Shown here piece after piece: positions 13,401 to 58,532 of a stretch of 64,000 nucleotides of DNA. The stretch's first letter is position 1; every line of letters starts with the position of its first letter. Location of the stretch: positions 1-64,000 of the IMG/VR virus record IMGVR_UViG_3300028048_000065. One strand, given 5' to 3'. The translations under genes were made by a program, and so were the position numbers. This DNA is from a virus. Lineage: Duplodnaviria > Caudoviricetes. The notes under the pieces are model-generated. The model searched no databases and was not told the DNA's origin. It worked only from the letters and a program-made list of their open reading frames with translations.

Positions 13401-15098
13401 TTATGCGCTGTATGCTGCCTCGAAGCAGTCATAACGAGGAACATTAAGCTGTTCAAGAAGAGCCTCCATAGGATTGGTCTTATCAGACAAAACCATCTTG
13501 AGGAGATTCGTGCTATAACCCGAAACCATGATACAACCGCGGTCATCAACCTTGAAAGGCAGGGCAAGACGATTGCTGCAATTTACTCTCCAAAAGGTAA
13601 TAATTGGCATTTTATACCCAGCATTCTTGAAGCGCTGATTAATCTCCTGCATAAAGGTCTTGTCAACAGGAGTACGATAACTGTACCAGCCATGACGATT
13701 TACCTTAGCATCGCACATGGAATCGAACTCGCCATCAGAGACAATGAGAATGCGCTCAGGCAGGTCAGACTGGGGAGAATGGTTGTCAATAGCGGTCTTA
13801 AGAATCAGGTCAAAGACCTTTTCCAGATTGGTATTAGAGCCATCCTGACACTCCCAAGTCTTACGAAGCTTGTTACAGAGGCTATCGTTATCATTAAAGC
13901 GTACAATATGAGGGTCAGCACTAAAGGTGATATACTTGTTTGCAAAAGCACCCTTGAGATGGTCTGCGCAATAAATGGCGAGAGACATAGCAACATCAAT
14001 GCAACGCATATTAGTGTTACCACCAATACCACTCTCCATAGAACCAGAGCAGTCACACACGACAAGCATACCCTTATCATCGGGAATCATATCAGGCAAA
14101 GCCTTCCACATACCCTCAAGAGTATCATCAGCCCTCTGAGGAAGTCCATACCAACGACCACTCAAATTCATGTACTTATTGACAATATCACAGGGATTCG
14201 CCACAGAAGCATTAATCTTAGCCTCACCAGTCTTGAGAGCAGCAAGAAAAGCCTGACGGCGCTCAGTATCATGGCGCAGGAATGCCTTGTTGTAGTTAAG
14301 ATTAGCCTTAGAGGGAACAGTTTCGTAGTCGATAGCAGCCCAATTATCCGAAGACATCTTGCGCTCAACAACATCAAGATACTTACGAAGAGCAGACAGA
14401 GCCTTACGATAGTTGCGTTCAGTCATGTTCAACTGCTTTGCAGTCCAAAGACCATTATCACGGGTCTGCTTAGAGTGAGAATTGGGCTTATCAAGCCACT
14501 TTCCAAGCAGAGAAATAGACTTATGCTGCTTCATGTTCTCCATGTCCTCAGCAAACTGCTTCTTAAGGAAATCGCGGACAGCCTTTTCAGAAGTGGGGTT
14601 GCCACGGAACTGATAAAGCATATCATAGCGAGAATACTCGCCAATCAGAGGAACGAGCTTTGCAGCAATGCTTGCACCGCCATTCTTTACAAGGTCACGA
14701 ATGACAATCTGAGTGAAGCGACGCTCGCCAGCACCGCAACGAATGTCCATCGTATAGCCAAGGAAACGCATAGCAAGATAAGGATTCTCATTGAAAGCCT
14801 TGCGCCAATCGGTGACAATCTGCTTCTCGTCCAGAGAACGGTAGCTTACCAACTTGGTAAACATATCAAGAAGAGCAGAAGAAGTAGTGGAATATGCCAC
14901 AGCACCATTGGTGGTATAGGTCATATTGTCGGGCAAAGACTTAGGAACAACCGCACGAACATAGAAGCCCTTGTTAGTCTTTTCCATCTTGTCGAAGAAC
15001 TTCTCCTTGTCCGACTTCTGACGCATAGGCTTTTCGGGCTTAGGAGACCAAGCCTTGTTAGAGTTCTTCTTGGAATTCTTGTTAATGTTATTATACAT
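13401..15098 (-). CDS. DUF2828-family protein (helical repeat + vWA; Ro60/TROVE-like architecture)
   Basis: TTNGAVAYSTT, DIRCGAGER, SLLGKW, IDYETVPSKA, vWA MIDAS DCSGSM, TNLEKVF, ILIVSDGEFD, SGYS; start moved to ATG 15098 (GGAG RBS); codon usage looks highly expressed. Confidence 0.85.
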   Translation of the reverse strand: MYNNINKNSKKNSNKAWSPKPEKPMRQKSDKEKFFDKMEKTNKGFYVRAVVPKSLPDNMTYTTNGAVAYSTTSSALLDMFTKLVSYRSLDEKQIVTDWRKAFNENPYLAMRFLGYTMDIRCGAGERRFTQIVIRDLVKNGGASIAAKLVPLIGEYSRYDMLYQFRGNPTSEKAVRDFLKKQFAEDMENMKQHKSISLLGKWLDKPNSHSKQTRDNGLWTAKQLNMTERNYRKALSALRKYLDVVERKMSSDNWAAIDYETVPSKANLNYNKAFLRHDTERRQAFLAALKTGEAKINASVANPCDIVNKYMNLSGRWYGLPQRADDTLEGMWKALPDMIPDDKGMLVVCDCSGSMESGIGGNTNMRCIDVAMSLAIYCADHLKGAFANKYITFSADPHIVRFNDNDSLCNKLRKTWECQDGSNTNLEKVFDLILKTAIDNHSPQSDLPERILIVSDGEFDSMCDAKVNRHGWYSYRTPVDKTFMQEINQRFKNAGYKMPIITFWRVNCSNRLALPFKVDDRGCIMVSGYSTNLLKMVLSDKTNPMEALLEQLNVPRYDCFEAAYSA

Positions 15099-15111
15099 AA
15101 TATTCTCCATT

Positions 15112-15152
15112 CTCGACCGCTTAATTTATTTTGAGTTTTGCTGAGTCGGTCG
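15112..15152 (-). promoter_or_regulatory. cargo-less ACAGCAA-stem element (E0) in the 5' UTR of the DUF2828 gene
   Basis: CGACCG-ACTCAGCAA...CGGTCGAG directly before the RBS; matches E1-E7. Confidence 0.75.
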
Positions 15153-22934: not shown

Positions 22935-23349
22935 TTTTTGTTTCTCCTTAAATTTGTCTAATTAAAATGTTTAAATTGTTTACTGTTACTATATATAAAA
23001 CTACAGGTGTAGCTTATTTTTTATTGTTTGAAACCAAAGCTACACCTGTATGGTTAGTAGCAAATATGACGAAGAGAATTAAAAATCTCAAGTCCTGCAA
23101 TATACCGTGCTTCTCGTAGACAATCTTCCATAAGAGCGTCCATTGCAGCGTGTCCTAAACCACCGTTCAAACTTGCGTCCCGCTCACAATCGTTGTAGAT
23201 TTGCTGAGCTCTTGCTTCAAATTCTTCATGGGTCATTCTGTTTTGGTTCCTTTTGCTGGGGTAAAATGTGTCTTGCGAAAGGACACATGAGGTACACTTA
23301 AGTTATTCGGAAACAAGGGAGAAGAATTAACTTCTCCCTTGAGAAGCGG

Positions 23350-23422
23350 CAGAGGAGATGGGACTCTCACCCATAACCTGCGGTTTTAGAGACCGCCGCT
23401 CTGATAATTGCGCTACTCCTCG
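23350..23422 (-). tRNA. amber-decoding tRNA (anticodon CUA), probably Gln
   Basis: cloverleaf: GAGGAG/CTCCTC acceptor with 1-72 mismatch, G73, anticodon arm GCGGT-CT-CTA-AA-ACCGC, T arm ATGGG/CCCAT with atypical loop. Confidence 0.85.
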
Positions 23423-23445: not shown

Positions 23446-23577
23446 CTCGACGCTAAAGAAAGGAAACTCACCACAAAGCTAATAAAACAACACACAAATT
23501 TGATTGAAGGAATCAATGATTTAGTAAATAAAATAGTATTTTTATCTAATTATAACCTATGTTGCTGTAAGCGTCGA
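23446..23577 (-). ncRNA. ACAGCAA-stem element E1
   Basis: TCGACGCT-TACAGCAA...AGCGTCGAG. Confidence 0.75.
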
Positions 23578-23681: not shown

Positions 23682-23744
23682 CTCGACCCTGTTTGAATTC
23701 TTAATTACCAGTTAAGTCCAAAAAAAGTTTGCTGTAAGGGTCGA
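23682..23744 (-). ncRNA. ACAGCAA-stem element E2 carrying a Thr(GGU)-type anticodon stem-loop
   Basis: TCGACCCT-TACAGCAA...CTTAA-CTGGTAA-TTAAG...AGGGTCGAG. Confidence 0.8.
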
Positions 23745-24135: not shown

Positions 24136-24199
24136 CTCGACTCATTGTACAAATATAAACCTAAATTATATGTAGAAGAAAAATTGCTGTGAGAGTCGA
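24136..24199 (-). ncRNA. ACAGCAA-stem element E3 carrying a Leu(UAG)-type anticodon stem-loop
   Basis: TCGACTC-TCACAGCAA...TATAA-TTTAGGT-TTATA...GAGTCGAG. Confidence 0.8.
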
Positions 24200-24516: not shown

Positions 24517-24533
24517 ATTTATTTTATATACTA

Positions 24534-24562
24534 AGTATAGCACATATTTTGTAGTTTGTCAA
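24534..24562 (-). promoter_or_regulatory. sigmaA promoter upstream of the tRNA block ending in the CUA tRNA
   Basis: TTGACA-17-TATACT with TG. Confidence 0.75.
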
Positions 24563-24590
24563 GTCTTTTTTAGACTTTATTTTTCTCAAA

Positions 24591-24747: not shown

Positions 24748-24764
24748 ATTGTGACTTAATTATA

Positions 24765-25082
24765 TCACAGATTTTCAAGATTGTCAAGAGTTTTTTCAGA
24801 ATTATTTTTTGTGTTTTTAGAAACTCCATAAATCTCCTGAGTTACCTTGCGACGCTCAAGCTCATTCTTATAAGCCTTTTCACGAGCATCAACGTTCATG
24901 TCATTATATGCAGCAACATAAACTTCATTACCACACTCTTCACAGAACGCAATTTTTTCATCATAACTAAAATTAATTCCACGAATAGTAAGATTAACTT
25001 TAGCTACATCTGTATCATAGCCAACCATCTTATTACAATGAATACAAAAGACCGTTGGCTTAGAATTCTTAAAATCAAACAT
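24765..25082 (-). CDS. YgiT/MqsA-type zinc finger protein
   Basis: CIHC...IRG...CEECGNEVY. Confidence 0.6.
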   Translation of the reverse strand: MFDFKNSKPTVFCIHCNKMVGYDTDVAKVNLTIRGINFSYDEKIAFCEECGNEVYVAAYNDMNVDAREKAYKNELERRKVTQEIYGVSKNTKNNSEKTLDNLENL

Positions 25083-25139
25083 CAGAATAAAACTCCGTTT
25101 TTATTTATCTATTTTAACCCAAATTTGCAACTTTTTGGG

Positions 25140-25652
25140 TCAAATTTGACGGTTTTCGCGTGTATTTACCCAATATCCCGCCATGCTATATTTGGGGACA
25201 CCAGTAACCTCGGTTGCAATCATCTCAGGCCAAGGGAATTTATATTTCTTAGCTTCTGCTGTAGATTCAAATTCTACCTCAGCATAAGCCCAAGTATCAT
25301 CAACAATACTAATTTCAATAGGCTTTTGACCATCCATATAGACAGTAAAACGTTCTTTCTTGATAGCCTTTTTTCCTGTTTCCTTACTCATTTTAGCAAC
25401 AAACTTTCGAGCAGAAAAAAGCTTATCTTCAAACTCAAGCCTTTCAAGTCCATTACCAACTTTGTAAGTCAACTTGCCATTATTAGAGCCAGCTTTATAA
25501 CGAATACGAGTTTCGCTGATGATGTGATTATCAGAATCAACGATTATCTCAAGATAATACTGCCACAACTGCTCTCTAATAACGTTAGCTTTATCTGGAA
25601 AATTAAAATCTCCGCCCTTTAGAAGCCATTTACGTTCAATTTCTTTACTCAT
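25140..25652 (-). CDS. CYTH (triphosphate tunnel metalloenzyme) domain protein
   Basis: EIERKW, KLTYK, AEVEF, EVTG motifs. Confidence 0.85.
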   Translation of the reverse strand: MSKEIERKWLLKGGDFNFPDKANVIREQLWQYYLEIIVDSDNHIISETRIRYKAGSNNGKLTYKVGNGLERLEFEDKLFSARKFVAKMSKETGKKAIKKERFTVYMDGQKPIEISIVDDTWAYAEVEFESTAEAKKYKFPWPEMIATEVTGVPKYSMAGYWVNTRENRQI

Positions 25653-25722
25653 ATTTTACCTCATCAGGTTCATAGTTTTTGTTGAGGATATAATTATTGG
25701 GTCATTTCCTTTTCTATAAAGT

Positions 25723-25798
25723 TGGGGTCTGAGGCAAGAATCGAACTTGCGTAGCTCTGCTTATGAGACAGAGCAGGTAAACCAACAACCTCTCAGAC
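25723..25798 (-). tRNA. tRNA with CAU anticodon (Met or Ile2)
   Basis: loop CT-CAT-AA, TTCGA T arm, CCA; unusual C73. Confidence 0.8.
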
Positions 25799-25821
25799 AT
25801 ATTTCTATTTTATTTTTAAAA

Positions 25822-25951
25822 CTCGACACATTTTATACATTCTGTTGCTCTACCCGTTGAGCTATGTCCGCATATTGGTGCGGACAGCAGGATTCGAACC
25901 TACAACACACAGGCCCTTGCCAGTATTAAATTTTGTTGCTGTTAGTGTCGA
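25822..25951 (-). ncRNA. ACAGCAA-stem element E4 containing a circularly permuted tRNA mimic (YrlA-like)
   Basis: T arm GTAGG-TTCGAAT-CCTGC, acceptor TGTCCGC-ACCAATAT-GCGGACA, D arm GCTC-AACGGGTA-GAGC. Confidence 0.85.
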
Positions 25952-25983
25952 AGCAAAATGAGGAGGCTCATCACATCGAGCCG

Positions 25984-26060
25984 TGGTAGCTCGGGTGGAA
26001 TTCGAATCCACACTTGACGGATTTTGAATCCGCTCTCTCTGCCGATTGGAGTACCGAGCC
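25984..26060 (-). tRNA. tRNA-Leu(CAA) with short variable loop
   Basis: GCGGA-TT-CAA-AA-TCCGT, A73, CCA. Confidence 0.85.
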
Positions 26061-26462
26061 ATATTCAGTTTAGCAACTACTGACAGACCAGCTTTCCACA
26101 TATCTGCCCTCGGTTCGATTGGGGAGAGGTTTACAGGAATATTCCTACAAACTTGCACCCAATTATCTCGGTCATTTTCATTGCTAAACTTAATATTTGC
26201 TGTCTCTCCAAGCTGTCACCGCTAATATGGTTGTAGGTTCTGGACGGTCTGAACTTAGTTACGCCATACACACATCTTAACCTTGAGAGATAGTCCATCG
26301 GTTAAGCGAAGCTCTATCTTGATAAATTTGCAAGATACTATCATGCTTTCTGGTTCGAGGTGCTTATATCGGAGTCACTATAGCGCATTTTTTCATCCCC
26401 TTACACAATTTTCAAAGCAGCAACTCGTTTACTAATTGTTTATCGGTTTATCCGAACCTCGA

Positions 26463-26584
26463 TGGACCCTACAACTGGAATCGAACCAGAATACCTCCCC
26501 CGATGCGTCTGTTATCACTAAAGAGCTACTTTAGTGTTTGCTCAACAGTCAGTTAATAGGTGTGCTCCTTACACCAAGTAGGGA
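26463..26584 (-). ncRNA. tRNA-like RNA with ~60-nt insertion replacing the anticodon loop
   Basis: CCCTAC/GTAGGG acceptor, TGGTGTAAGGAGCAC D arm, CTGG-TTCGATT-CCAG T arm, CCA. Confidence 0.6.
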
Positions 26585-26705
26585 TATAAAAGGGAACCCA
26601 GCTTTATCTCGCCCTTAACGACCGTTCCCAATGCCGAACACCATACTCGTGCTTTTACTGCTTCTAATACTACGAATTTATTACGAGCAGCTATAATAAA
26701 TTCTG

Positions 26706-26792
26706 TGGCGGAGACAACAGGACTCGAACCTGTATTACCTTTCGGTAAGCTTGTTTAGCAAACAAGAGAGATGACCATTACTCCATGCCTCC
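26706..26792 (-). tRNA. tRNA-Ser(GCU)
   Basis: CTTGT-TT-GCT-AA-ACAAG, long variable arm, G73, CCA. Confidence 0.9.
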
Positions 26793-26807
26793 ATATAAGT
26801 GAGCAAA

Positions 26808-26931
26808 CTCGACACTTTTATTCAGGCCAGCCAGACTTAGACATTCCTTGCTCAAGGGTTATTCTAATAGGGAGTCGAACCCTACATGATGTTTTTTCAA
26901 GAACATTAAGTAAAATTGCTGTGAGTGTCGA
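26808..26931 (-). ncRNA. ACAGCAA-stem element E5 (Ser(UGA)-like loop plus T arm)
   Basis: TCGACACT-CACAGCAA...ATGTT-CTTGAAAA-AACAT...TAGGG-TTCGACT-CCCTA...AGTGTCGAG. Confidence 0.75.
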
Positions 26932-27078
26932 ATGGACATTAAACATTTACAAAAGAATCTGGTAGTCGGATTGAACTTCCTCTTCACCGACTGTTCGGAG
27001 GGTTAGTCACCTTAATCCTCTTGAAGAGTAGGATTCTCATACAGTCTAACCGTAGCATGAGTTATGCTTAATTACCTC

Positions 27079-27138
27079 AGTAACTAAGAAGTTGTTTAGA
27101 TAAGTTCGCTACGCTTACCTCGTGGAATATCCACGCAC
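27079..27138. repeat. 60-bp direct repeat, copy 1
   Basis: 59/60 identical to 27353-27412. Confidence 0.95.
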
Positions 27139-27352: not shown

Positions 27353-27412
27353 AGTAACTAAGAAGTTGTTTAGGTAAGTTCGCTACGCTTACCTCGTGGA
27401 ATATCCACGCAC
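27353..27412. repeat. 60-bp direct repeat, copy 2
   Basis: 59/60 identical to 27079-27138. Confidence 0.95.
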
Positions 27413-27775
27413 GATTTTCCACCACTCGGGATTCTTATCACATTAGCACCCTGATAAGTTTCACCAACTATATATCGTGTTCTTCCCTTTTCATTTTCTG
27501 CTTCGAACGCCAATTGCTTGCGCTCTACTCCAAGACTTCGGACGGGAGTTGGGGCTTTAGCTTAACGGACTAAAGATGAGTTCAAATATATGGAACACCG
27601 ACAAGGCTTTAGCCATCCTTGCTGAATCGGGCAGTTAAATATAAGTTACATTCGCTATCTGCCAATTGAATGTAAATTATTGAATGGGTGATGTTTTGTT
27701 AGTCTATCACCAAGACTATGGGAGTTGGGTTGTTTTGAGACTCACCAACCATTCGTCTTCCTTGATTGTGTACTT

Positions 27776-27804
27776 AGTATAGCACATTTTGCTTTGTTTG
27801 TCAA
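27776..27804 (-). promoter_or_regulatory. sigmaA promoter upstream of the long non-coding region
   Basis: TTGACA-17-TATACT with TG. Confidence 0.75.
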
Positions 27805-27852
27805 GGGTTTTTAAAATATTTTTTAAAAATTTTTCAAAAACCTTAAAGCATC

Positions 27853-28141
27853 TAAAAACAAGATGTGGTATCTATGACCCAGTTTCATGGTGACTTATTA
27901 CAGTGGGAGCATCTAAAGGTTGTTACCCTTTACTTGAAGTCTCTCCCGACAACCCTTTTATCAAGGGCAGCGTCTAATCCGTATCATTCGGTTTTCCCGA
28001 CTCATTTCGGATTGCGGATTTCTTACCTACCGCCGTAATACCTACTGACCTGTCTATGCCAGCCCCGACCCGTCTTATCATTATACACAGACTATAAAAT
28101 CTGCTTTATTGAGTCAACTGCCGTTAGCCATCTTGTTTTTA
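27853..28141 (-). ncRNA. candidate ~290-nt structured ncRNA
   Basis: 13-bp terminal inverted repeat, promoter at 28152-28180 just upstream, raised GC, no ORF in the track. Confidence 0.55.
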
Positions 28142-28322
28142 GTGTAACTTAAGTATATCACAACATTTTGTGTTTGTCAAGGGGTTTTTAAACTTTTTTG
28201 AAAACTTTTTAAGAAATCTTTTTTTGTGACTTCTTAATTTATATATTAAGTATAGCACAGATTCCTAAGTTTGTCAAGAAGTTTAGAATAAAAATTTTCT
28301 TTTATTATGTATTGAAAATCAT

Positions 28323-28652: not shown

Positions 28653-28726
28653 CTCGACACTATATTATGTACGTTTATGAACCCAAATCATATGTATTTA
28701 ATATAAAAAGTTGCTGTGAGTGTCGA
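28653..28726 (-). ncRNA. ACAGCAA-stem element E6 carrying a Pro(UGG)-type anticodon stem-loop
   Basis: TCGACACT-CACAGCAA...TATGA-TTTGGGT-TCATA...AGTGTCGAG. Confidence 0.8.
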
Positions 28727-29387: not shown

Positions 29388-29800
29388 ATATTATTTCGGT
29401 TTGGGAACGCTACTGGTTTTCAAGTGTTCCAACTCAAAATAGGAGCGTACTAACAAGAAACGCAGTAGGTTCTTCTACCTATTTAAATAGCAAGATTGAA
29501 TGTGATTGGCATACCACGTTTTAGGGAACTTTGAAACCACTCTTGCTAAATAAAACAAATTTTTTATTCTTCTTTTAATAAGAAGGTGTGTACCCAAAAC
29601 CGTTAAAATGGTACACTCGCTACCTTTTAATTTTATAGTTGGGAAGGTGTCTTTTAGCAACAACCCCAAGTAAGTGAGGCTGGTGAACTACAATTCCCCG
29701 TGAGTTATCTTACTTTCTCACAGTTACCGATTAACCAACTTTATGTATTTATTATACCATATTGATTTTGATTTGTCAATAGGTTAATAACTTTTTTATT

Positions 29801-29929
29801 CTCGACTCTTTAATAAATTCACGAAGCTGTCTTACCACTTGACTAATCCTCTCAGGGAAAGGATTATGGAATCGAACCATAGTTTGCTTCTTTGGTAAGA
29901 ATATTATAAAAAATTGCTGTAAGAGTCGA
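29801..29929 (-). ncRNA. ACAGCAA-stem element E7 containing a circularly permuted tRNA mimic (YrlA-like)
   Basis: GAAGC/GCTTC stem, T arm TATGG-TTCGATT-CCATA, looped acceptor ATCCT/AGGAT, D arm GTC-AAGTGGTAA-GAC. Confidence 0.85.
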
Positions 29930-30107
29930 TGAGATAAATCATGGAGCGCTCTTTCGAGCTTGTCTTTATATTACCACAAACATTTCTGTTTGTCAAGACC
30001 TTTTTAAACTTTTTTCAGAAATTTTGATTACTTTTTATTCATGCTACGAATATAGTCAATGACAAACATAACCCACATTCCAAGAATAAAAGGAATAATA
30101 ACATTCA

Positions 30108-37034: not shown

Positions 37035-38282
37035 TTACTTAATTTCAACAAGATAGCGAACTGTAACTTGGTCGGGACGATAGAAAATAATCTCAGGATT
37101 TCGGAGCATTCCTTTTTCGGGAGAAGCATAAACACAATGACAAGGAGGATTTTTCTTCTGTAATACATCAAAATTAAAATGATAGCATTCAGAAGTATGC
37201 TCATAAACTATATAAGGATTACCATAAGCAACTTCAAAAATTGCCATAAATCCAGTTTTAGCACTTCCTCTTGCCCAATAAGACCCAGCGGTAGAAGTAT
37301 AACCAATACTCTTTCGAGCAAGAGTGGAAAAATAGAGCCCGTCGGAAAACATCGACCCTGTATATACTGCATTGGCAGGACGAATTTTCAAACCAGTTTT
37401 AAGAATATTGAAAAAGTTTTCACTTCGAGAACCATGCCACATAAGTTTGGTATTATCAATTTTATATTCAGAGCAAAACTTTTTAAAATGTTTGTCTGTT
37501 TCATGATTGTTAACTCGCCAAACTTTAACAAAACGGTCACTGTCTCGACCAAGCATCTTTTTTACAAGAGCCACATCTTCCGCAGTAGCATCTTCCATAG
37601 TAATACCCATTTCATCAAGAACAGAAACTTCATTATTATTGGTGTTACTATCAGCATTTTTCTTTTCAATCTTTACAGGCTTATAAACCTGACCTGCCAT
37701 AGCATCAAGAGTGCTCTGCTCTCGGTCAATAATAGATTTAAAAGAATCAAGGTCATTTTTATAAATAAGGTAATCACTTACATTACTCATTTTACGAGGA
37801 ATAACCATGAAGATTTCCAAAAGCTTTTTGTTGAACTGGTTATAATCCATATTCTCGTAATTAAGAGCAAGATTATCAATTAGGCTCTGAGCTTCATCAA
37901 TCATAGCCTGAGTAACAACGGAAGATTTAACCTTGTAAGCAGACTGAACAACCTTGTTCGCAAAATCATATAGACGCTTAATAATATCTCGAACAGACTT
38001 ATTTTCAATTACTGAAAATTTATCTTTTCCCTCTGTAGGCTCTTCCTCTTTAGAATTTTCAATTACATCTGTCATAAGATGTGTCTGAGAAACATAGCCC
38101 TTCTTAAGCTTAGAATTAATCTGCGAATCCCACTTGGACATGGGATAAATTTTGGTGCTTTCATGTCCACCTACTCGACCGTACTTTACAGTAAAAGTCC
38201 CATCAGAATTTGGTTCGCAATTATAGAATTTATTATGATTGTCAGATGTAACCATAATCAAATAAACAGGCGTCTTTTCCAT
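37035..38282 (-). CDS. PARP-like ADP-ribosyltransferase with WGR domain
   Basis: NKFY and YGRVG (WGR); LMWHGSR, GLYFS, KSIGY, terminal NPEII (H-Y-E triad). Confidence 0.85.
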   Translation of the reverse strand: MEKTPVYLIMVTSDNHNKFYNCEPNSDGTFTVKYGRVGGHESTKIYPMSKWDSQINSKLKKGYVSQTHLMTDVIENSKEEEPTEGKDKFSVIENKSVRDIIKRLYDFANKVVQSAYKVKSSVVTQAMIDEAQSLIDNLALNYENMDYNQFNKKLLEIFMVIPRKMSNVSDYLIYKNDLDSFKSIIDREQSTLDAMAGQVYKPVKIEKKNADSNTNNNEVSVLDEMGITMEDATAEDVALVKKMLGRDSDRFVKVWRVNNHETDKHFKKFCSEYKIDNTKLMWHGSRSENFFNILKTGLKIRPANAVYTGSMFSDGLYFSTLARKSIGYTSTAGSYWARGSAKTGFMAIFEVAYGNPYIVYEHTSECYHFNFDVLQKKNPPCHCVYASPEKGMLRNPEIIFYRPDQVTVRYLVEIK

Positions 38283-38374
38283 AAGGAAATCTCCTTTGAT
38301 AAACTTAAATGAGGTATGATAGAATAATACCATACCTCATTCGTTTTGTCAATAGGTTTTTATGATTTTTTTGC

Positions 38375-46673: not shown

Positions 46674-48626
46674 TTAAAGTCCTGCTTTCTTAATAAATTC
46701 GTCTTCTGACATAATAGGAATATTAAGCTTCTTAGCCTTTTCAGCCTTACTTGAACCACTATCTCCATCATTTGTAAGCAAGAAAGAAGTCTTTGCCGAT
46801 ACTGAACCAGAAAGCTTTCCTCCACGGTTAGTAATAATTTGCTCCAATTCTGAGCGTTTATAATTATTAAAGCTGCCCGTAACAACAAAAGTCTTACCTG
46901 AAATAAAATCATCTGCACTAACCTTGGGAGCTTCTTCAACAATAAAACTAAACTCCTTATCAAGACCAGCCCAAAGAGGATTAGGATTAACCCAAGCATC
47001 ATTCATAGCATCTGCCATTGCTTTACCAAAATCATCAAGAGTGCTAAAATCAAATCCATGTTCCCACGCATCTTTGAAGAAACCATAGTTACCATTAAAT
47101 GCCTTAGAAATAGTCTTACCAGCAGTCTTTCCAATAAGAGGAATACCAAGGGAAGTGATAAAATTACTCAGCTTAATCTCACGAGATAGCTCGATAGCTT
47201 CATAAAGCTTCTTATAACTCTTTTCACCAAAACCATCAAGCTTAATGATTTCATCCTTGTGGTCGGACAAATGATAAATGTCCGCAAAAGTCTTAATAAA
47301 GCCGAGGTCAATAAACTTAGAAAGGATTGCTTCACTCAAGCCATCAATATTTGCACAAGGCTTGGAAACAAAATGCACAAACTGAGCAAGCTGTTTAGCA
47401 GCACAAGAAAAATTGTCACACCATATAGTTTCAGCCCCTGATGAAGAAATTTCTCTGCGTAATTTACCGCCACAACAGGGACAGGTTTCAGGAATAATAA
47501 GATTATTACTTTCAGTAAAGTTCTTTACTATGTTAGGAATAACTTCATTCATTCTGGATACCGCTATTTCGTCTCCAATACCGAGTTTAAGGTTTTTAAT
47601 AAAGGTAATATTGTTTAAAGTAGCTCGTGAAGTAATAGCTCCCCCTAAGTCTACAGGCTTAAAAATGGCTGTTGGAAAAACTACTCCTGTTTTCCCTACA
47701 TTCCATTGTACATCCTCTAAAACAGTTTTAATCTGTTCCATTTTTCTTTTCCATGCAAATTGCGAGTTCAAATGATGGGATGTTGCTCCCAAAGATTCTC
47801 CAAAACTTACGTCATCATAAGAAACAACTAAACCATCAACAGGAATCTTAGCTTCCGAAGCTTTTTTATAATACATATTTTCAAAAAGTGACGGAAGTTC
47901 ATCTAAAGAAATTTTGCCATAAAATTTATGTGGAACTACTTCAAACCCCAAGTCACTTAAAATGTTTAAATTGTTTTCAAAAGAATTAGTTAAGGTCTCT
48001 CCTTTAACATATTTCCAAGCAATAAAACTTAAATTACGGTCTTTTGTTACTTGAGTATCGAGTTGTCTAATACCACCAGCAGCATAGTTGCGAGGATGAG
48101 AAAAATCATCTGAACAATTAGCCTGATTAAAAGCGTCCCATTTAACAATAATTTCTCCATCTACTACTATTTCGTCTTGTTCAGAAATTGTTAATGGAAC
48201 ATTAGAAACCATTTTTATATTTTCTGTTACATCTTCTCCAATAAAGCCATCTCCCCTTGTTTCTGCTCTTACTAATTTTCCTTTTTTATATAAAAGGCTA
48301 CAAGTAAGACCATCACATTTAAGCATAAAAACAACAGGTTGTTCCCCAATAAATTTCTTTATTTCTTCATTATCTGTGCTTTTAGCTAAACTTAGCATAG
48401 GATGGTTATGTTTAACTTTTTTTAAAGAAGATTGAATAGTAGCTCCAACCTTTTGAGTTGGAGAACCATTGAATTTTAATCCCGTTTCAGCTTCCAACGC
48501 TTTCAACTCATCAAAAAGTGCGTCGTATTCAGCATCTTCAACTAAAGAAATGTTATTATTATAATAAGAATTTCGATAAAAATTAATCTTTTCTATTAAT
48601 TCTAAAATTCTTTCTGACAATTTCAT
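46674..48626 (-). CDS. ligA: NAD-dependent DNA ligase
   Basis: YD.L..EL, HPMLSL, KCDG, TRGDG, PRNYAAG, Zn finger, HhH, BRCT; own GGAG RBS before ATG 48626. Confidence 0.9.
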   Translation of the reverse strand: MKLSERILELIEKINFYRNSYYNNNISLVEDAEYDALFDELKALEAETGLKFNGSPTQKVGATIQSSLKKVKHNHPMLSLAKSTDNEEIKKFIGEQPVVFMLKCDGLTCSLLYKKGKLVRAETRGDGFIGEDVTENIKMVSNVPLTISEQDEIVVDGEIIVKWDAFNQANCSDDFSHPRNYAAGGIRQLDTQVTKDRNLSFIAWKYVKGETLTNSFENNLNILSDLGFEVVPHKFYGKISLDELPSLFENMYYKKASEAKIPVDGLVVSYDDVSFGESLGATSHHLNSQFAWKRKMEQIKTVLEDVQWNVGKTGVVFPTAIFKPVDLGGAITSRATLNNITFIKNLKLGIGDEIAVSRMNEVIPNIVKNFTESNNLIIPETCPCCGGKLRREISSSGAETIWCDNFSCAAKQLAQFVHFVSKPCANIDGLSEAILSKFIDLGFIKTFADIYHLSDHKDEIIKLDGFGEKSYKKLYEAIELSREIKLSNFITSLGIPLIGKTAGKTISKAFNGNYGFFKDAWEHGFDFSTLDDFGKAMADAMNDAWVNPNPLWAGLDKEFSFIVEEAPKVSADDFISGKTFVVTGSFNNYKRSELEQIITNRGGKLSGSVSAKTSFLLTNDGDSGSSKAEKAKKLNIPIMSEDEFIKKAGL

Positions 48627-49736
48627 TTTATTACTCCATTTAATATAACGATTATATTTTCTATTAAGATAGATAGTAGCATCTTCATAAAGCCAATCAA
48701 GAAAAATTTTGCACTCTTGCATTTTGCTGAGTCTTAAATCCCATATTTGAGTTCGCGTTTCTTGATAAAGTGTAAAATTTACTTTTAACTTATCATATAA
48801 ATAATCTTTTATCGCATTTAAGAAATTATAATTACCTGTAAAATAACAACTTATTGAACGTCTCTTGCCACAACTTAACCCTCCATCTCCATCAAAATAA
48901 CCACGAATAAAATGTTTAATTAAATTCTCTTCTAAATAAGAGGGGAAAGTAATTTTAAAACTTTTATTTTGACACAGACCTTTTTCTAATAATTTTTGAG
49001 TCATTGCTACACTCTATATTACAAATGAAGGATAATATTTATCAGTCAATTTTTGGTAAATAAAAAATAAAGGTTTTTCATTTTTTGTAATTTGTCTAAA
49101 TTTTTCCAAATGTTCTACATCTTCAGGCTTTAACGTAATAGTTAAAGTATTTCTATCTTCACTTATACTGCCATCTGCAAAGACAAACCCTAAAAAGTAT
49201 GCCTTTTCCTAAGTATCAACATCATCAAAAAAGCTCAAATCAAAAGAATAAAGACGATGCCTATCTTCAAAAAGTTTTACATTTTCTTCTTTTAAAATTT
49301 CATACATGGTATTTGGAGTGGTTTTGTGTTTACGGCAAATTTCAATTAAATTTAATTTTTTATTGATATAATCTTCTTTTAATTCTTCTCTATTTATTTT
49401 TTCTTTATTAGTTGCTCTTTCCCACCCATATTTTCTTGCTAAACCGTGAAGTGCTGTTTGAGGTGCTTTATATTTTAAAACCAATTCATCTAAAGTTAAT
49501 ATTCCTTTTAAATAATCTTGCTTAAAATCATCTAAATGAGAATATAAAAAAGTATATTGATTGTTTCCTTTTGGCTCATTTAATCTATGAGAACTCAAAA
49601 AACGAGCCATTGTTGATTGAGAAACATTAAATCTTCGCCCAAGTTCTGTTATATTTACCCGCTAATTAAATAACTATTCAATCTTTTCTTTATTTTCTTC
49701 AAGCTAATCCTTCAAATATTTTTTACTCATTGTCAT
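48627..49736 (-). CDS. LAGLIDADG homing endonuclease, in frame with ligA (5 TAG)
   Basis: DT*EKAYFLGFVFADG and HFIRGYFDGDG; no stop before ligA. Confidence 0.85.
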
Positions 49737-55717: not shown

Positions 55718-56206
55718 TTAGAATTTGCCAGAATCTCCAAAGCCCTCTGCTCCACGAGAAGTCTCATCAAGATTGTCAGTCTCTTCAAACTCTGTCAGGA
55801 TTACTGGTGCAAGCATAAACTGTGCAATTCGCTGCCCATGCTCAATAATCTGAGTCTCCGAAGAATCGTTATGGAGAGCTACAATGATTTCGCCACGGTA
55901 GTTTGAATCAATACATCCTACGGCGTTAGCAGGACGCAATCCCTGTTTCGTTGCAATACCACTGCGAGCATAAATAGCACCCCAATAACCATTAGGAATT
56001 GCCATTGCTAAACCTGTTCCAACCTTTACAGTGGTATGAGGAAGAATCTTCAAACCATTACGCCCTTCTGTGCTACCCCAAGGAATAAAAGTATCATTGG
56101 GAATGTCAGCATACAGGTCAAAAGCAGCGTCCTCTGCATGAGCCTTTGTCGGAATCTTTGCTGTCTCGGTCAACTTCTTAATCTTTACATTAACCATTGT
56201 AATCAC
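55718..56206 (-). CDS. dut: dUTPase
   Basis: AAFDL, ARSG, GCIDSNYRGE, RIAQ, RGAEGFGDSG. Confidence 0.95.
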   Translation of the reverse strand: MITMVNVKIKKLTETAKIPTKAHAEDAAFDLYADIPNDTFIPWGSTEGRNGLKILPHTTVKVGTGLAMAIPNGYWGAIYARSGIATKQGLRPANAVGCIDSNYRGEIIVALHNDSSETQIIEHGQRIAQFMLAPVILTEFEETDNLDETSRGAEGFGDSGKF

Positions 56207-57576
56207 TCTTCTTTCTTTAAATTGTTTTGTCTTTCTTTTGCTTGTCTAATAGCCTTTTCATGCTGATTCTTTAGTTTAAGAATCTCTGCGTGACGATAAG
56301 GAAAACCACGACGAATAAGATATTGAGTCTCTTTCTCATTTACCATGTTCCTTACATCACTTGCAATACACTTAGGCACATTTTCACTAATCCATACCAT
56401 CTTAAGCTTATTAATATAATTTTCAGGATAATTTTTAAGCTGGTCTTTAAGCTCTTCCATCATCTGATAATACCAATTCATAGCCGCAGTAGTACGAGTA
56501 TTAATATAATTTACAGTCTCAAGATAAAAACCCTTTACAATATCTTTGAAAGCATCGGGGACTTTAGAATAGAAATCATCATACTTGTCATAAGCCAGCG
56601 CTTCAATTACTGCATTAGGAGACACTTGCTTACTAATCACACGATGCATTAAAACGTAATCGTTTACTTTCACTTTCACGCGAAAATCATTATCGTTCTC
56701 ATCTCGCATACGGATAACCCAGCCCTCTTTTTCATTAGAAGAAAAGTTATCAACCTGAGCAAGAAGCGAATCCAGATTTTCAGAATCGTAATACTCTACC
56801 ATCTTACTATCATAAAGAGTAGCAATACTACGAACAGTATCAAAATCCATCTCAGTTCCATCAACACAAGAACGAGCAGAAATTAGATACATTCCCTCTT
56901 GTTCCTTAGTATAATGAACAACAATAGCATTTTTAGTAGAAATGAACTCAAAAATAAAAGTATAATCAGGATAATCCTTAATCATTTGCTTTTGAGAATC
57001 AGTCAAAAGACCAAATCCCTCTTTTAGTCTCCAAGATTCATTCAGACTAATAGCCTGAGAACCCGACCCAAAAATTGTTCCAGAACCATCAGAATTAGTA
57101 ATATATCGGAATTGCTGATAACTACCGTCCATTTTATTGGTAATCCAAATTTTTTGAGCAGAAGTATACTTTTCTCGAATAGCCTTTTCAGACCAATCAA
57201 AAGCATCTTCCCCCATATTCTTGAATTTATTTAGAGAACAAAGTACAAGTTCTTCTTTCTTTACATCAAAGACACAAGAACGACACTCTCGATAAAGTCC
57301 ATCATATAGATAGAAAAAGGTTTCCTCAGAATATCCCATATCACTAAGGTCAATAAAACCCTTGTAATGGAAAAGCACATATTCATTATCAATGGTCATA
57401 TCAAGAGGCTCAAATACATCAAGCAAATCCAAAAGACTTACAATATAAGCTTTTTCTGATTGTTCAGAAAGGTATTCAAGCCAATGCTTAAAATTCCAAT
57501 CTTGAATAGGATTGTGATTATAAGCATATAGAGCTTTTACTTCTTTAATATATCCAAGCAGAGGATGCTTCCACAT
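56203..57576 (-). CDS. T4 Rnl1-like RNA ligase
   Basis: KFKN, KMDGS, FEF, EGWV, RVKVK...Y. Confidence 0.85.
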   Translation of the reverse strand: MWKHPLLGYIKEVKALYAYNHNPIQDWNFKHWLEYLSEQSEKAYIVSLLDLLDVFEPLDMTIDNEYVLFHYKGFIDLSDMGYSEETFFYLYDGLYRECRSCVFDVKKEELVLCSLNKFKNMGEDAFDWSEKAIREKYTSAQKIWITNKMDGSYQQFRYITNSDGSGTIFGSGSQAISLNESWRLKEGFGLLTDSQKQMIKDYPDYTFIFEFISTKNAIVVHYTKEQEGMYLISARSCVDGTEMDFDTVRSIATLYDSKMVEYYDSENLDSLLAQVDNFSSNEKEGWVIRMRDENDNDFRVKVKVNDYVLMHRVISKQVSPNAVIEALAYDKYDDFYSKVPDAFKDIVKGFYLETVNYINTRTTAAMNWYYQMMEELKDQLKNYPENYINKLKMVWISENVPKCIASDVRNMVNEKETQYLIRRGFPYRHAEILKLKNQHEKAIRQAKERQNNLKKEE

Positions 57577-58532
57577 TACTGTGTACCACTTGCAATCCTA
57601 TCACATTTATTAAATAAGAAAAGATTATCAAGCTTTTCCTTTCCCATAATTTTCTCCCACTTTTTCTGAGCCTTTTCGGTCTCAATAAAGAAGGGCAACA
57701 TATGAAAGTTTACATAGAATAAGCACTCAAGACACTTATCATAATCTTCGAAACCAACCCATGCAAGAAGATGCATTAACTCATAACAACCCTTATTATG
57801 GTGGCTATAATAGCGACATTCACCACTACCATCAGGTTTTTCTTCCTGCGTCAACATCTTCCCATAATCATGGATTTCTGCTGCGCGAATAAGGATTTCA
57901 TTATCGGTTCGTTTTGCGACTTCTTCTGCACACTTTTGACAATGCACATCAAGAGTATACTTATGATGAGAATTGCACTGGTCAAATCCTCTCATAAAAT
58001 CTTGAATAACATCTTTATCAACTATTGTTCTTATTAATTCATCTTTAGCATAACTAAAATATCCGCTATTCCAATCAATTAAATTAATTTCATCAAACCC
58101 TTCTTCATAAAAAGGAATCTCAAATTTTCCAATCTGCTTATCAATAACATACTCAGGGACTTTTCGCTCACGCTTACGATTAAGCATCTTGCATACAGGT
58201 TCAGGAGTAGTCATAACCATAGCAATTTTACGCACATCTGAATTTTTACGAACAAGGTCAAGTAGAGGAATACGAGACTTTACATTAATACTGGTAGCAT
58301 CTACAATGACATTCATTTTCCCAATACAGTTGTTAATTCTACGACGAACTTCCTTAAAGACTTCATCATTATGAGTCTGGTCATTAATATCACCATACAA
58401 ATCAACGCGAATCTGGTCAGAGGAAACAATAATAGTTTTCTGTCCATTTCGTTCGTATACATTTTTAATGTTGTTTGCAAAAGTGGATTTACCACTTGCG
58501 ACAGGTCCAACCATAATTACAAGATTAGTCAT
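57576..58532 (-). CDS. polynucleotide kinase (AAA_33) with HD phosphohydrolase
   Basis: GPVASGKST, SSD.IR, VDAT; H..., IHDYGK, HM. Confidence 0.85.
   Translation of the reverse strand: MTNLVIMVGPVASGKSTFANNIKNVYERNGQKTIIVSSDQIRVDLYGDINDQTHNDEVFKEVRRRINNCIGKMNVIVDATSINVKSRIPLLDLVRKNSDVRKIAMVMTTPEPVCKMLNRKRERKVPEYVIDKQIGKFEIPFYEEGFDEINLIDWNSGYFSYAKDELIRTIVDKDVIQDFMRGFDQCNSHHKYTLDVHCQKCAEEVAKRTDNEILIRAAEIHDYGKMLTQEEKPDGSGECRYYSHHNKGCYELMHLLAWVGFEDYDKCLECLFYVNFHMLPFFIETEKAQKKWEKIMGKEKLDNLFLFNKCDRIASGTQ

Follow-up and report, generated by a model that had tools for sequence, protein, structure and literature searches.

A circularly permuted tRNA body on a conserved handle in a phage tRNA island, probably a Y-RNA-type RNA linked to a Ro60-shaped phage protein

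The stretch of DNA analysed here, referred to as the window, comprises the first 64 kilobases (kb; 64,000 nucleotides, nt) of the 149.5-kb IMG/VR virus record IMGVR_UViG_3300028048_000065, for which a completeness of 69% was estimated; the phages most closely related to it measure about 215 kb. Nearly all genes of the window are carried on the minus strand. A tRNA island at 23.3-30.5 kb was found to contain ten tRNA genes, a family of near-consensus sigma-70-type promoters and long stretches free of open reading frames (ORFs). Between tRNA-Leu(CAA) (26060-25984) and a weak tRNA-Met(CAU) (25798-25723) of this island lies the subject of this analysis, a handle-tagged RNA element of 130 nt on the minus strand, designated E4 (25822-25951). 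The neighbouring tRNA-Met(CAU) (25723-25798, minus strand) scored 29.8 bits only and its D arm is defective; two related phages (L004 and L005) were found to contain about 416 nt of unlike sequence in its place.

Read along the minus strand, E4 was found to begin with the handle 5′ arm UCGACAC (25945-25951), followed by the nucleotides UA and by the single-stranded motif ACAGCAA (25936-25942), which thus starts 2 nt past the arm. After 23 nt come the anticodon-stem 3′ strand CUGU (25912-25909) and a variable loop of 5 nt, GUGUU (25908-25904), both invariant in the orthologs, followed by the T arm GUAGG-UUCGAAU-CCUGC (25887-25903). The loop-closed acceptor stem (25865-25886) was found to contain 7 of 7 Watson-Crick pairs and consists of the acceptor 3′ strand UGUCCGC (25886-25880), ACCA (A73-CCA, 25879-25876), the linker AUAU (25875-25872) and the acceptor 5′ strand GCGGACA (25871-25865). 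It is followed by UA, by the D arm GCUC-AACGGGUA-GAGC (25847-25862; GCTC-AACGGGTA-GAGC in DNA letters), in which G18G19 is present, and by A26 with the anticodon-stem 5′ strand ACAG (25842-25846, the strand itself at 25845-42). After a further 12 nt the element ends in the handle 3′ arm GUGUCGA (25829-25823), which pairs with the 5′ arm, and a conserved G (together 25822-25829).

All the parts that the preliminary description had listed (CTGT, T arm, acceptor 3′ strand, ACCA, ATAT, acceptor 5′ strand, D arm and ACAG) were recovered on the minus strand, including the ACCA that it had described as intact. It had also let the tRNA hang off an ACAGCAA stem; a 4-base-pair (bp) remnant of the anticodon stem does sit on a terminal helix, but that helix is formed by UCGACAC/GUGUCGA and ACAGCAA is single-stranded. 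E4 was confirmed as a complete tRNA body minus the anticodon loop, circularly permuted and clamped by the handle. When the two halves were joined via an artificial anticodon loop, a canonical 76-nt tRNA was called by ARAGORN; in its native order E4 yielded 0 tRNA genes with ARAGORN and no call with the Rfam tRNA model RF00005. The residues of the tertiary contacts in the elbow and core of a class-I tRNA, read by eye, were all found to be present (U8, A14, A15/U48, G18G19, A21, G46, T54-A58 and G53-C61). The minimum free energy fold of E4 has a z-score of -3.1, and RNAfold gives an outer helix that encloses the T, acceptor and D hairpins. A small AUAC..GUGU hairpin upstream of the T arm, drawn by both RNAfold and RNAalifold, is not supported, as its inner pairs are broken by a G-to-U change in the orthologs.

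The orthologs of E4 were reached through a flanking protein of 170 amino acids in four related phages (L004-L007), and E4 was found in 4 of these 4 as a discrete conserved block whose flanks and neighbouring tRNAs differ. The most divergent ortholog (L007) contained the T stem AGGAG/CUCCU, in which 4 of 5 pairs were altered on both sides and none was broken. In its acceptor stem, a hand count on the alignment showed pairs 1-72 and 7-66 altered on both sides and pair 6-67 altered on one side, again with no pair broken, and both flanks of the body, including the handle, were invariant over about 50 nt each. In the MAFFT alignment of the four distinct orthologous sequences, 99.1% of the cells were paired, against 27-41% when the partners were slid; the formal count gave 5 pairs changed on both sides, and none of 500 shuffles reached the paired fraction or the count. 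The hand count, with seven pairs, is higher because one base of the 5′ acceptor strand is out of place in the MAFFT alignment. RNAalifold, run on the orthologs, independently recovered the outer helix together with the T, acceptor and D arms. The compensatory substitutions, together with the invariant flanks, show that E4 is under purifying selection. No match was found by megablast of positions 25000-27000 against the phages of GenBank or for an exact 25-mer of E4 in IMG/VR, and a search for a parent tRNA among 1387 phage tRNAs gave no close relative, the phage's own tRNAs scoring low.

The handle of E4 was found to belong to a family. The 149-kb record contains the pattern TCGAC-N-C-NN-ACAGCAA seven times, without exception in the tRNA island and on the minus strand, and each of the seven copies is followed 55-124 nt on by G-N′-GTCGAG. 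The N/N′ pair is A/U, U/A, C/G or G/C, and this middle pair of the arms therefore uses all four Watson-Crick combinations among the seven paralogs. The paralog at 29801-29929 (minus strand) contains a second permuted tRNA-like body, with the T arm AUGG-UUCGAUU-CCAU, a sealed hairpin and a D arm and with no CCA, and it covaries in the orthologs. The paralog at 26808-26931 (minus strand) contains a T arm, a long sealed hairpin and a D-like arm; its T stem and hairpin covary in the ortholog of L132. Three further copies on the minus strand are short: those of 74 nt (28653-28726) and 64 nt (24136-24199) contain a small hairpin, and that of 63 nt (23682-23744) contains a hairpin resembling an anticodon arm. 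The paralog of 132 nt at 23446-23577 (minus strand) bears a cargo that is not tRNA-like. Six or seven handle copies, on one strand only, were found in each of the four related phages. The E4 family was found to combine a covarying 7-bp end helix, ACAGCAA located 2 nt past the 5′ arm, and a gene for a DUF2828/DUF7788 protein on the same strand. A possible ninth handle, TCGTCGC-TA-ACAGCAA ... GCGGCGA, was noticed outside the window at 139629-139791 (minus strand) of its own record. A relaxed scan of the whole record for [AT]CAGC[AG]A with any arms returned mostly noise inside genes.

A degenerate eighth handle, CGACCG-AC-UCAGCAA ... CGGUCGAG (15112-15152, minus strand), was found in the 5′ untranslated region of the DUF2828/DUF7788 gene itself, placed after a consensus promoter and before the ribosome-binding site of ORF 13401-15110 (minus strand). 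The start of this gene is likely the ATG at 15098, which has GGAG just before it. Pfam assigned only DUF2828 and DUF7788 to the protein, plus a weak VWA_2 match (E 0.004). The TROVE family (PF05731) gave no match in the 149-kb record at E<=1 and none on ORF 13401-15110 at E<=10, and a phmmer search of the DUF2828 protein against the PDB sequences returned nothing. This absence of TROVE at first spoke against a Ro partner, and it was overturned by the fold of the DUF2828 protein. An AlphaFold model built from 36 homologs is of moderate confidence (predicted local distance difference test 69, predicted template modelling score 0.53) and shows a ring of HEAT repeats followed by a von Willebrand factor A (vWA) domain. 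In Foldseek, the top 13 matches of the model were all Ro60/TROVE proteins aligned over the full length (E 2e-8 to 4e-5), including the Ro60 of phage phiLo, Xenopus and human Ro60 and Deinococcus Rsr (9KOP, 1YVP, 2NVO). In the VIA alignment with 9KOP (phiLo Ro60), which covers residues 77-564 and aligns 374 residues, Z was 17.5; against Rsr and Ro60 it was about 12.5, whereas proteins that match the vWA half only reached 9-11. As the Foldseek and VIA matches extend over both domains, the product of ORF 13401-15110 is read, on its predicted model, as a divergent Ro60-fold protein with a helical ring and a vWA domain.

The linkage of the handle to this protein family was examined in 80 IMG/VR loci around homologs of the DUF2828 protein (37-94% identity), with 10 kb on either side, a handle element being defined as a 7-nt arm, NN, ACAGCAA and a complementary arm within 230 nt. 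The motif ACAGCAA alone was found 506 times on the gene strand against 119 times on the opposite strand. Handle elements were found 164 times on the gene strand against 8 on the opposite strand, reversed-sequence controls giving 19, and at least one element was present in 70 of the 80 loci. Of the 164 gene-strand elements, 55 have their end no more than 250 nt upstream of the gene; another 41 are located at 1-2 kb upstream, and 26 follow shortly after the gene. The arms vary by clade (AAGACAC, TAGACTC, AAGAGGC, GGGACGC and others) and always have a matching partner; ACAGCAA stays constant in all 164. In other clades (L185, L187, L190, L204 and similar), about 120-150 nt upstream of the DUF2828 gene, and also in L174-L183, L205 and L230, handles were seen with other tRNA parts. 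Some of these contain an anticodon-arm-like hairpin and a T arm in normal order, with the handle stem replacing the acceptor stem, and others contain lone anticodon-like hairpins with a 7-nt loop, e.g. AGA-CUUUUAA-UCU.

The same association was approached from the DNA, blind to the protein, with a pattern of T loop, CCA and D arm, which gave 120 phage loci; these were filtered for self-complementary acceptor halves outside the tRNAs called by ARAGORN. Stand-alone permuted tRNA modules were found in 11 records, of which 6 contain DUF2828, 1 contains canonical TROVE and 4 are fragments of 5-24% completeness. Among the first 48 records, DUF2828 was present in 2 of the 40 without a permuted module. 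The permuted modules of the DUF2828 phages lie within ACAGCAA handles. The TROVE phage (L024) was found to contain two stand-alone permuted modules on the plus strand (L024:9661 and L024:11218), with a CGAA-containing stretch upstream of one of them, and ACAGCAA was not seen beside either, suggesting a separate handle for each Ro-like family.

The sealed acceptor loop of these modules was also compared. When permuted modules were collected with no requirement for CCA, NCCA was found to open about half of the sealed loops, and it opens 5 of the 7 modules of the DUF2828 loci (CCCA, GCCA, CCCA, GCCA, GCCA), for a chance expectation of 1 in 64 per loop. A U just before G1 was present in most permuted modules, E4 included, and bacterial RNase P is known to prefer U at position -1. 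RNase P may cut the sealed loop of E4 5′ of G1, and trimming would leave an NCCA 3′ end, a plausible opening that the preliminary description had also inferred. This is supported by the YrlA RNA of Mycobacterium smegmatis, which possesses an acceptor stem of 7 bp, is a substrate of RNase P in vitro and occurs in vivo as two halves, with a CCA end (PMC4201824). Three observations count against such an opening: the loop of the L007 ortholog reads CACAAUAUG and contains no CCA, positions 73 and -1 of this ortholog have changed jointly from A-U to C-G and so lengthen the sealed stem, and two paralogs are without CCA. The opening of E4 by RNase P is judged to have roughly even chances.

As its handle tracks a Ro60-shaped phage protein, E4 most likely represents a new form of the bacterial Y RNAs that mimic tRNAs, of the YrlA type. 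E4 is probably a small non-coding RNA of the Y-RNA type, borne on a handle that would dock the Ro60-shaped protein of the phage, with a tRNA-body module permuted as in YrlA. The handle would consist of the 7-bp terminal helix and the adjacent single-stranded ACAGCAA, and the variable module displayed on it would in E4 be a near-perfect tRNA body devoid of the anticodon loop. We infer that E4 is transcribed as part of a polycistronic tRNA-island transcript, from which it would probably be freed by the tRNA-processing nucleases that cut its neighbours. The resulting particle may couple a Ro-like ring to RNA-handling enzymes of the host, the tRNA-shaped module being recognised by tRNA enzymes, in analogy with Rsr-YrlA.

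The YrlA topology that the preliminary description had proposed was borne out, since the arrangement matches that of YrlA (PMC4201824) and the Rfam YrlA model (RF02553) aligns E4 end to end, over positions 1-114. The score that it had named as a check went only part of the way: E4 reached 37.1 bits (E 1e-6 for a stretch of 401 nt, 2.7e-5 for 10 kb), short of the gathering threshold of 69 bits, since model positions 13-22 with their partners, which make up the Ro-binding helix, are deleted in E4. This shortfall is one of several points that weigh against E4 as a Y-RNA-type RNA. Dimers of tRNAs are known false positives of the YrlA covariance model (PMC4201824), and E4 lies 10.7 kb from the Ro-like gene, on the same strand, where YrlA is expected within 4 kb. 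Neither the CUGU/ACAG stem nor the handle varies among the E4 orthologs, and covariation within E4 itself therefore lends them no support; the pairing of CUGU with ACAG is compatible with the alignment, and RNAalifold favours a small local hairpin over it. In some orthologs the 5′ arm overlaps a sigma-70-like -35/-10 pair, and it is perhaps not always part of the RNA. A hairpin resembling a terminator, followed by a U run, is located directly between tRNA-Leu and the E4 5′ arm (25965-25982, minus strand) and raises the question of how E4 is transcribed. The docking of the handle on the product of ORF 13401-15110 is proposed from co-occurrence and analogy of fold.

Part of the same evidence would fit a cis-acting cassette of the tRNA island, in which TCGACNC..ACAGCAA is a promoter or regulator site and the arms and body form a processing or punctuation signal for RNase P or RNase Z that serves the neighbouring tRNAs, and not a trans-acting ribonucleoprotein (RNP) RNA. 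Elements were indeed found directly before tRNAs or small ORFs, and TCGACA, a spacing of 16-17 nt and TATAAT are present in the E4 orthologs of L004-L006 and in the paralog at 23577; tRNA-like punctuation is moreover a known principle of RNA processing. The other clades, however, contain the 5′ arms AAGACAC, TAGACTC, AAGAGGC and GGGACGC with matching 3′ arms, and arms that differ between clades and keep matching partners show that the 5′ arm belongs to a helix and exclude that it generally stands for a -35 box. In L007 the spacing amounts to 20 nt, the window has a degraded -10, and 3 of 7 paralogs are without a usable -10. Because the arm sequences change and covary from clade to clade, and because L007 does not keep the spacing, a promoter TCGACA...TATAAT was rejected as the general explanation. 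Across phages the elements follow the DUF2828 gene and not the tRNAs, with 55 of them within 250 nt upstream of the gene, and a cis-acting role of this kind is considered unlikely. Still less is to be said for a functionless, decayed junction of tandem tRNA genes, in which a 3′ half left by the first gene would adjoin a 5′ half left by its successor. Blastn matches in the phages of GenBank were confined to such tandem junctions (Pro|Arg of GAP31 and Arg|Thr of FBB1; 80% identity over 55-68 nt), which were judged to reflect convergence of tRNA consensus parts and were rejected as relatives of E4, and tRNA dimers mimic YrlA in covariance-model searches (PMC4201824). Against this stand acceptor halves that are complementary to each other in 7 of 7 positions, flanks without remnants of the missing halves, compensatory changes with invariant flanks, a handle that is left unexplained, and the recurrence of the same layout within ACAGCAA handles of unrelated phages. 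Such a junction is very unlikely.

A small mobile DNA element resembling a miniature inverted-repeat transposable element, with the 7-bp arms as its terminal inverted repeats, would account for E4 standing as a discrete block between unlike flanks in L006 and L007 and for the several copies per genome. It would not account for the transcribed strand carrying all copies in five phages, for the distribution beside DUF2828 (164 against 8), for arms that covary rather than stay conserved, or for the presence of ACAGCAA on one side only, and it is rated as slightly less probable again than the decayed junction. The lowest probability was given to a genuine circularly permuted tRNA gene, comparable to those of Cyanidioschyzon and Thermofilum, which would pass through a circular intermediate to a decoding tRNA. 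The order of 3′ half, CCA, short linker and 5′ half does fit, and the phage encodes an Rnl1-like RNA ligase and a kinase. The reading fails because E4 has no anticodon loop: the 4-bp CUGU/ACAG stem opens to conserved single strands of 32 nt and 12 nt and then to the handle. The splicing endonuclease route is furthermore absent from bacteria, and the paralogs bear cargo that is not tRNA on the same handle.

An E4 opened by host RNase P into two pieces, ended by CCA, devoid of an anticodon and still held by its handle on the Ro60-like ring might serve as bait or sponge for host anti-phage effectors that hit the acceptor ends or elbows of tRNAs, and the short paralogs might show anticodon stem-loops to anticodon nucleases. 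Such a 'tRNA-parts display' particle would stand beside the Pnk/Rnl1 tRNA repair of the phage, and a handle shared with the Class I RNAs of Dictyostelium would suggest an ancient RNP family that has gone unrecognised; this extended proposal is speculative and rather unlikely.

To our knowledge, tRNA-like modules have been described in Y RNAs only alongside canonical Ro60/Rsr. The same design of Y RNA was found here on a different conserved handle, which tracks the Ro60-folded DUF2828/DUF7788 family, listed in the databases as of unknown function. E4 is an unusually clean case, with a full tRNA body, an encoded ACCA and U at -1, and a single transcript of 130 nt with a single protein makes cutting by RNase P, the CCA end and charging, and binding of the handle directly testable. 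If the link holds, a function would be provided for a widespread DUF, and the recurrent unannotated gaps in phage tRNA islands would be explained. No account of an ACAGCAA handle with DUF2828 was found in Rfam 15 or in the literature searched on DUF2828, ACAGCAA and phage tRNA-like or Y RNAs.

Several further features were observed in the window. Seven copies of a promoter module of about 59 nt, near the consensus and with motifs on the minus strand, are present at 24524-24582, 24749-24807, 27766-27824, 28142-28200, 28239-28297, 29741-29799 and 29958-30016. The module contains an A/T-rich upstream part followed by TTGACA, 17 nt and TG-TATAAT/TATACT, and the seven copies probably drive the tRNA and small-RNA island. 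An ORF-poor part of the island contains a match to the Rfam family RAGATH-33 (27980-28128, minus strand; 118.6 bits against a threshold of 120.4, E 5e-25). A direct repeat of 60 nt, 98% identical, was found in an ORF-free region (27079-27138 and 27353-27412, 274 nt apart). The tRNA at 23348-23422 (minus strand) contains the amber-reading anticodon CUA and was labelled 'Pyl' by ARAGORN. A tRNA-repair pair lies on the minus strand, in which an AAA_33 kinase (57576-58532, 318 amino acids) adjoins a T4 Rnl1-like RNA ligase (56203-57576, 457 amino acids). A gene for a PARP-like/WGR protein is present at 37035-38333, and an NAD-dependent DNA ligase (46674-49004, minus strand) contains an N-terminal LAGLIDADG-like domain at residues 30-102.

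In red and green algae and in Thermofilum, circularly permuted tRNA genes contain a 3′ half followed by CCA, a short linker and a 5′ half. The same order of halves and a perfectly matching acceptor stem were found in E4. These genes encode a whole tRNA with an anticodon loop and form a circular intermediate, whereas E4 lacks such a loop and is held together by a handle.

The nearest known system is YrlA (RF02553; PMC4201824), which is found in bacteria and mycobacteriophages and is bound by Rsr/Ro60. Like E4, YrlA has its 5′ and 3′ ends paired in a terminal helix and a short conserved motif by the 5′ strand, followed by a T arm, a sealed acceptor and a D arm in permuted order, and several paralogs lie on the same strand as a gene for a Ro60-fold protein. 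The domain of E4 was found to show this construction, with a T arm, a loop-closed acceptor-like stem and a D arm, permuted and placed on a terminal helix. The motif of YrlA is GNCGAA(N)G, whereas ACAGCAA takes its place in E4; GNCGAAN0-1G was not found in minus-strand positions 25965-25815, where only the UUCGAC of the handle arm and the UUCGAA of the T loop were read. The partner of E4 belongs to DUF2828/DUF7788 and is undetected by the TROVE model of Pfam, and E4 is located inside a tRNA island. Strict membership of E4 in the YrlA family fails on score, motif, distance and partner family. The tRNA body of E4 is more complete than that of the YrlA of S. Typhimurium, with a 7-bp stem and an encoded ACCA.

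Phage Ro60 proteins with phage Y-like RNAs are already known (PMC12135203; PMC4201824; PMC7824862), and in one of them the phage-encoded Y-like RNAs, with phage Ro60, are described as binding the host PNPase (PMC12135203). The Ro60 of Thermus phage phiLo with its RNAs Yrl1 and Yrl2 (PMC12135203; PDB 9KOP, 9L5Y) resembles the present case in having a phage-encoded ring of Ro60 fold and phage Y-like RNAs, which are proposed here from sequence and a structural model. The phiLo Ro60 is the best structural match of ORF 13401-15110 (the Z of 17.5 given above) at a protein identity of about 14%. Unlike E4, the phiLo RNAs were chosen for a motif CGAA, are located immediately upstream of the gene and, in the available part of that report, are not presented as tRNA-like.

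The Class I RNAs of Dictyostelium (Aspegren 2004; Kjellin 2021, PMC7919456) resemble E4 in forming multi-copy families with a short terminal stem and a variable interior. Their 5′ motif ends in (Y)NACAGCAA directly after the stem, and E4 shares the stem and (U)NACAGCAA, a likeness of pattern only; the published search pattern for these RNAs is GTTGRCCTTACAGCAA ... GTCAACTG (PMC5054030). The Class I RNAs contain an 11-nt motif, CCUUACAGCAA, by the 5′ strand and have a length of 42-65 nt, whereas E4 has 130 nt, comes from another taxon and differs in the rest of the motif. They are eukaryotic, are reported as unique to Dictyostelia and are bound by the RNA recognition motif protein Rnp1A/CIBP, and tRNA-like cargo has not been described for them. 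The shared arrangement of stem and motif may tie the handle family of E4 to these unexplained RNAs of social amoebae.

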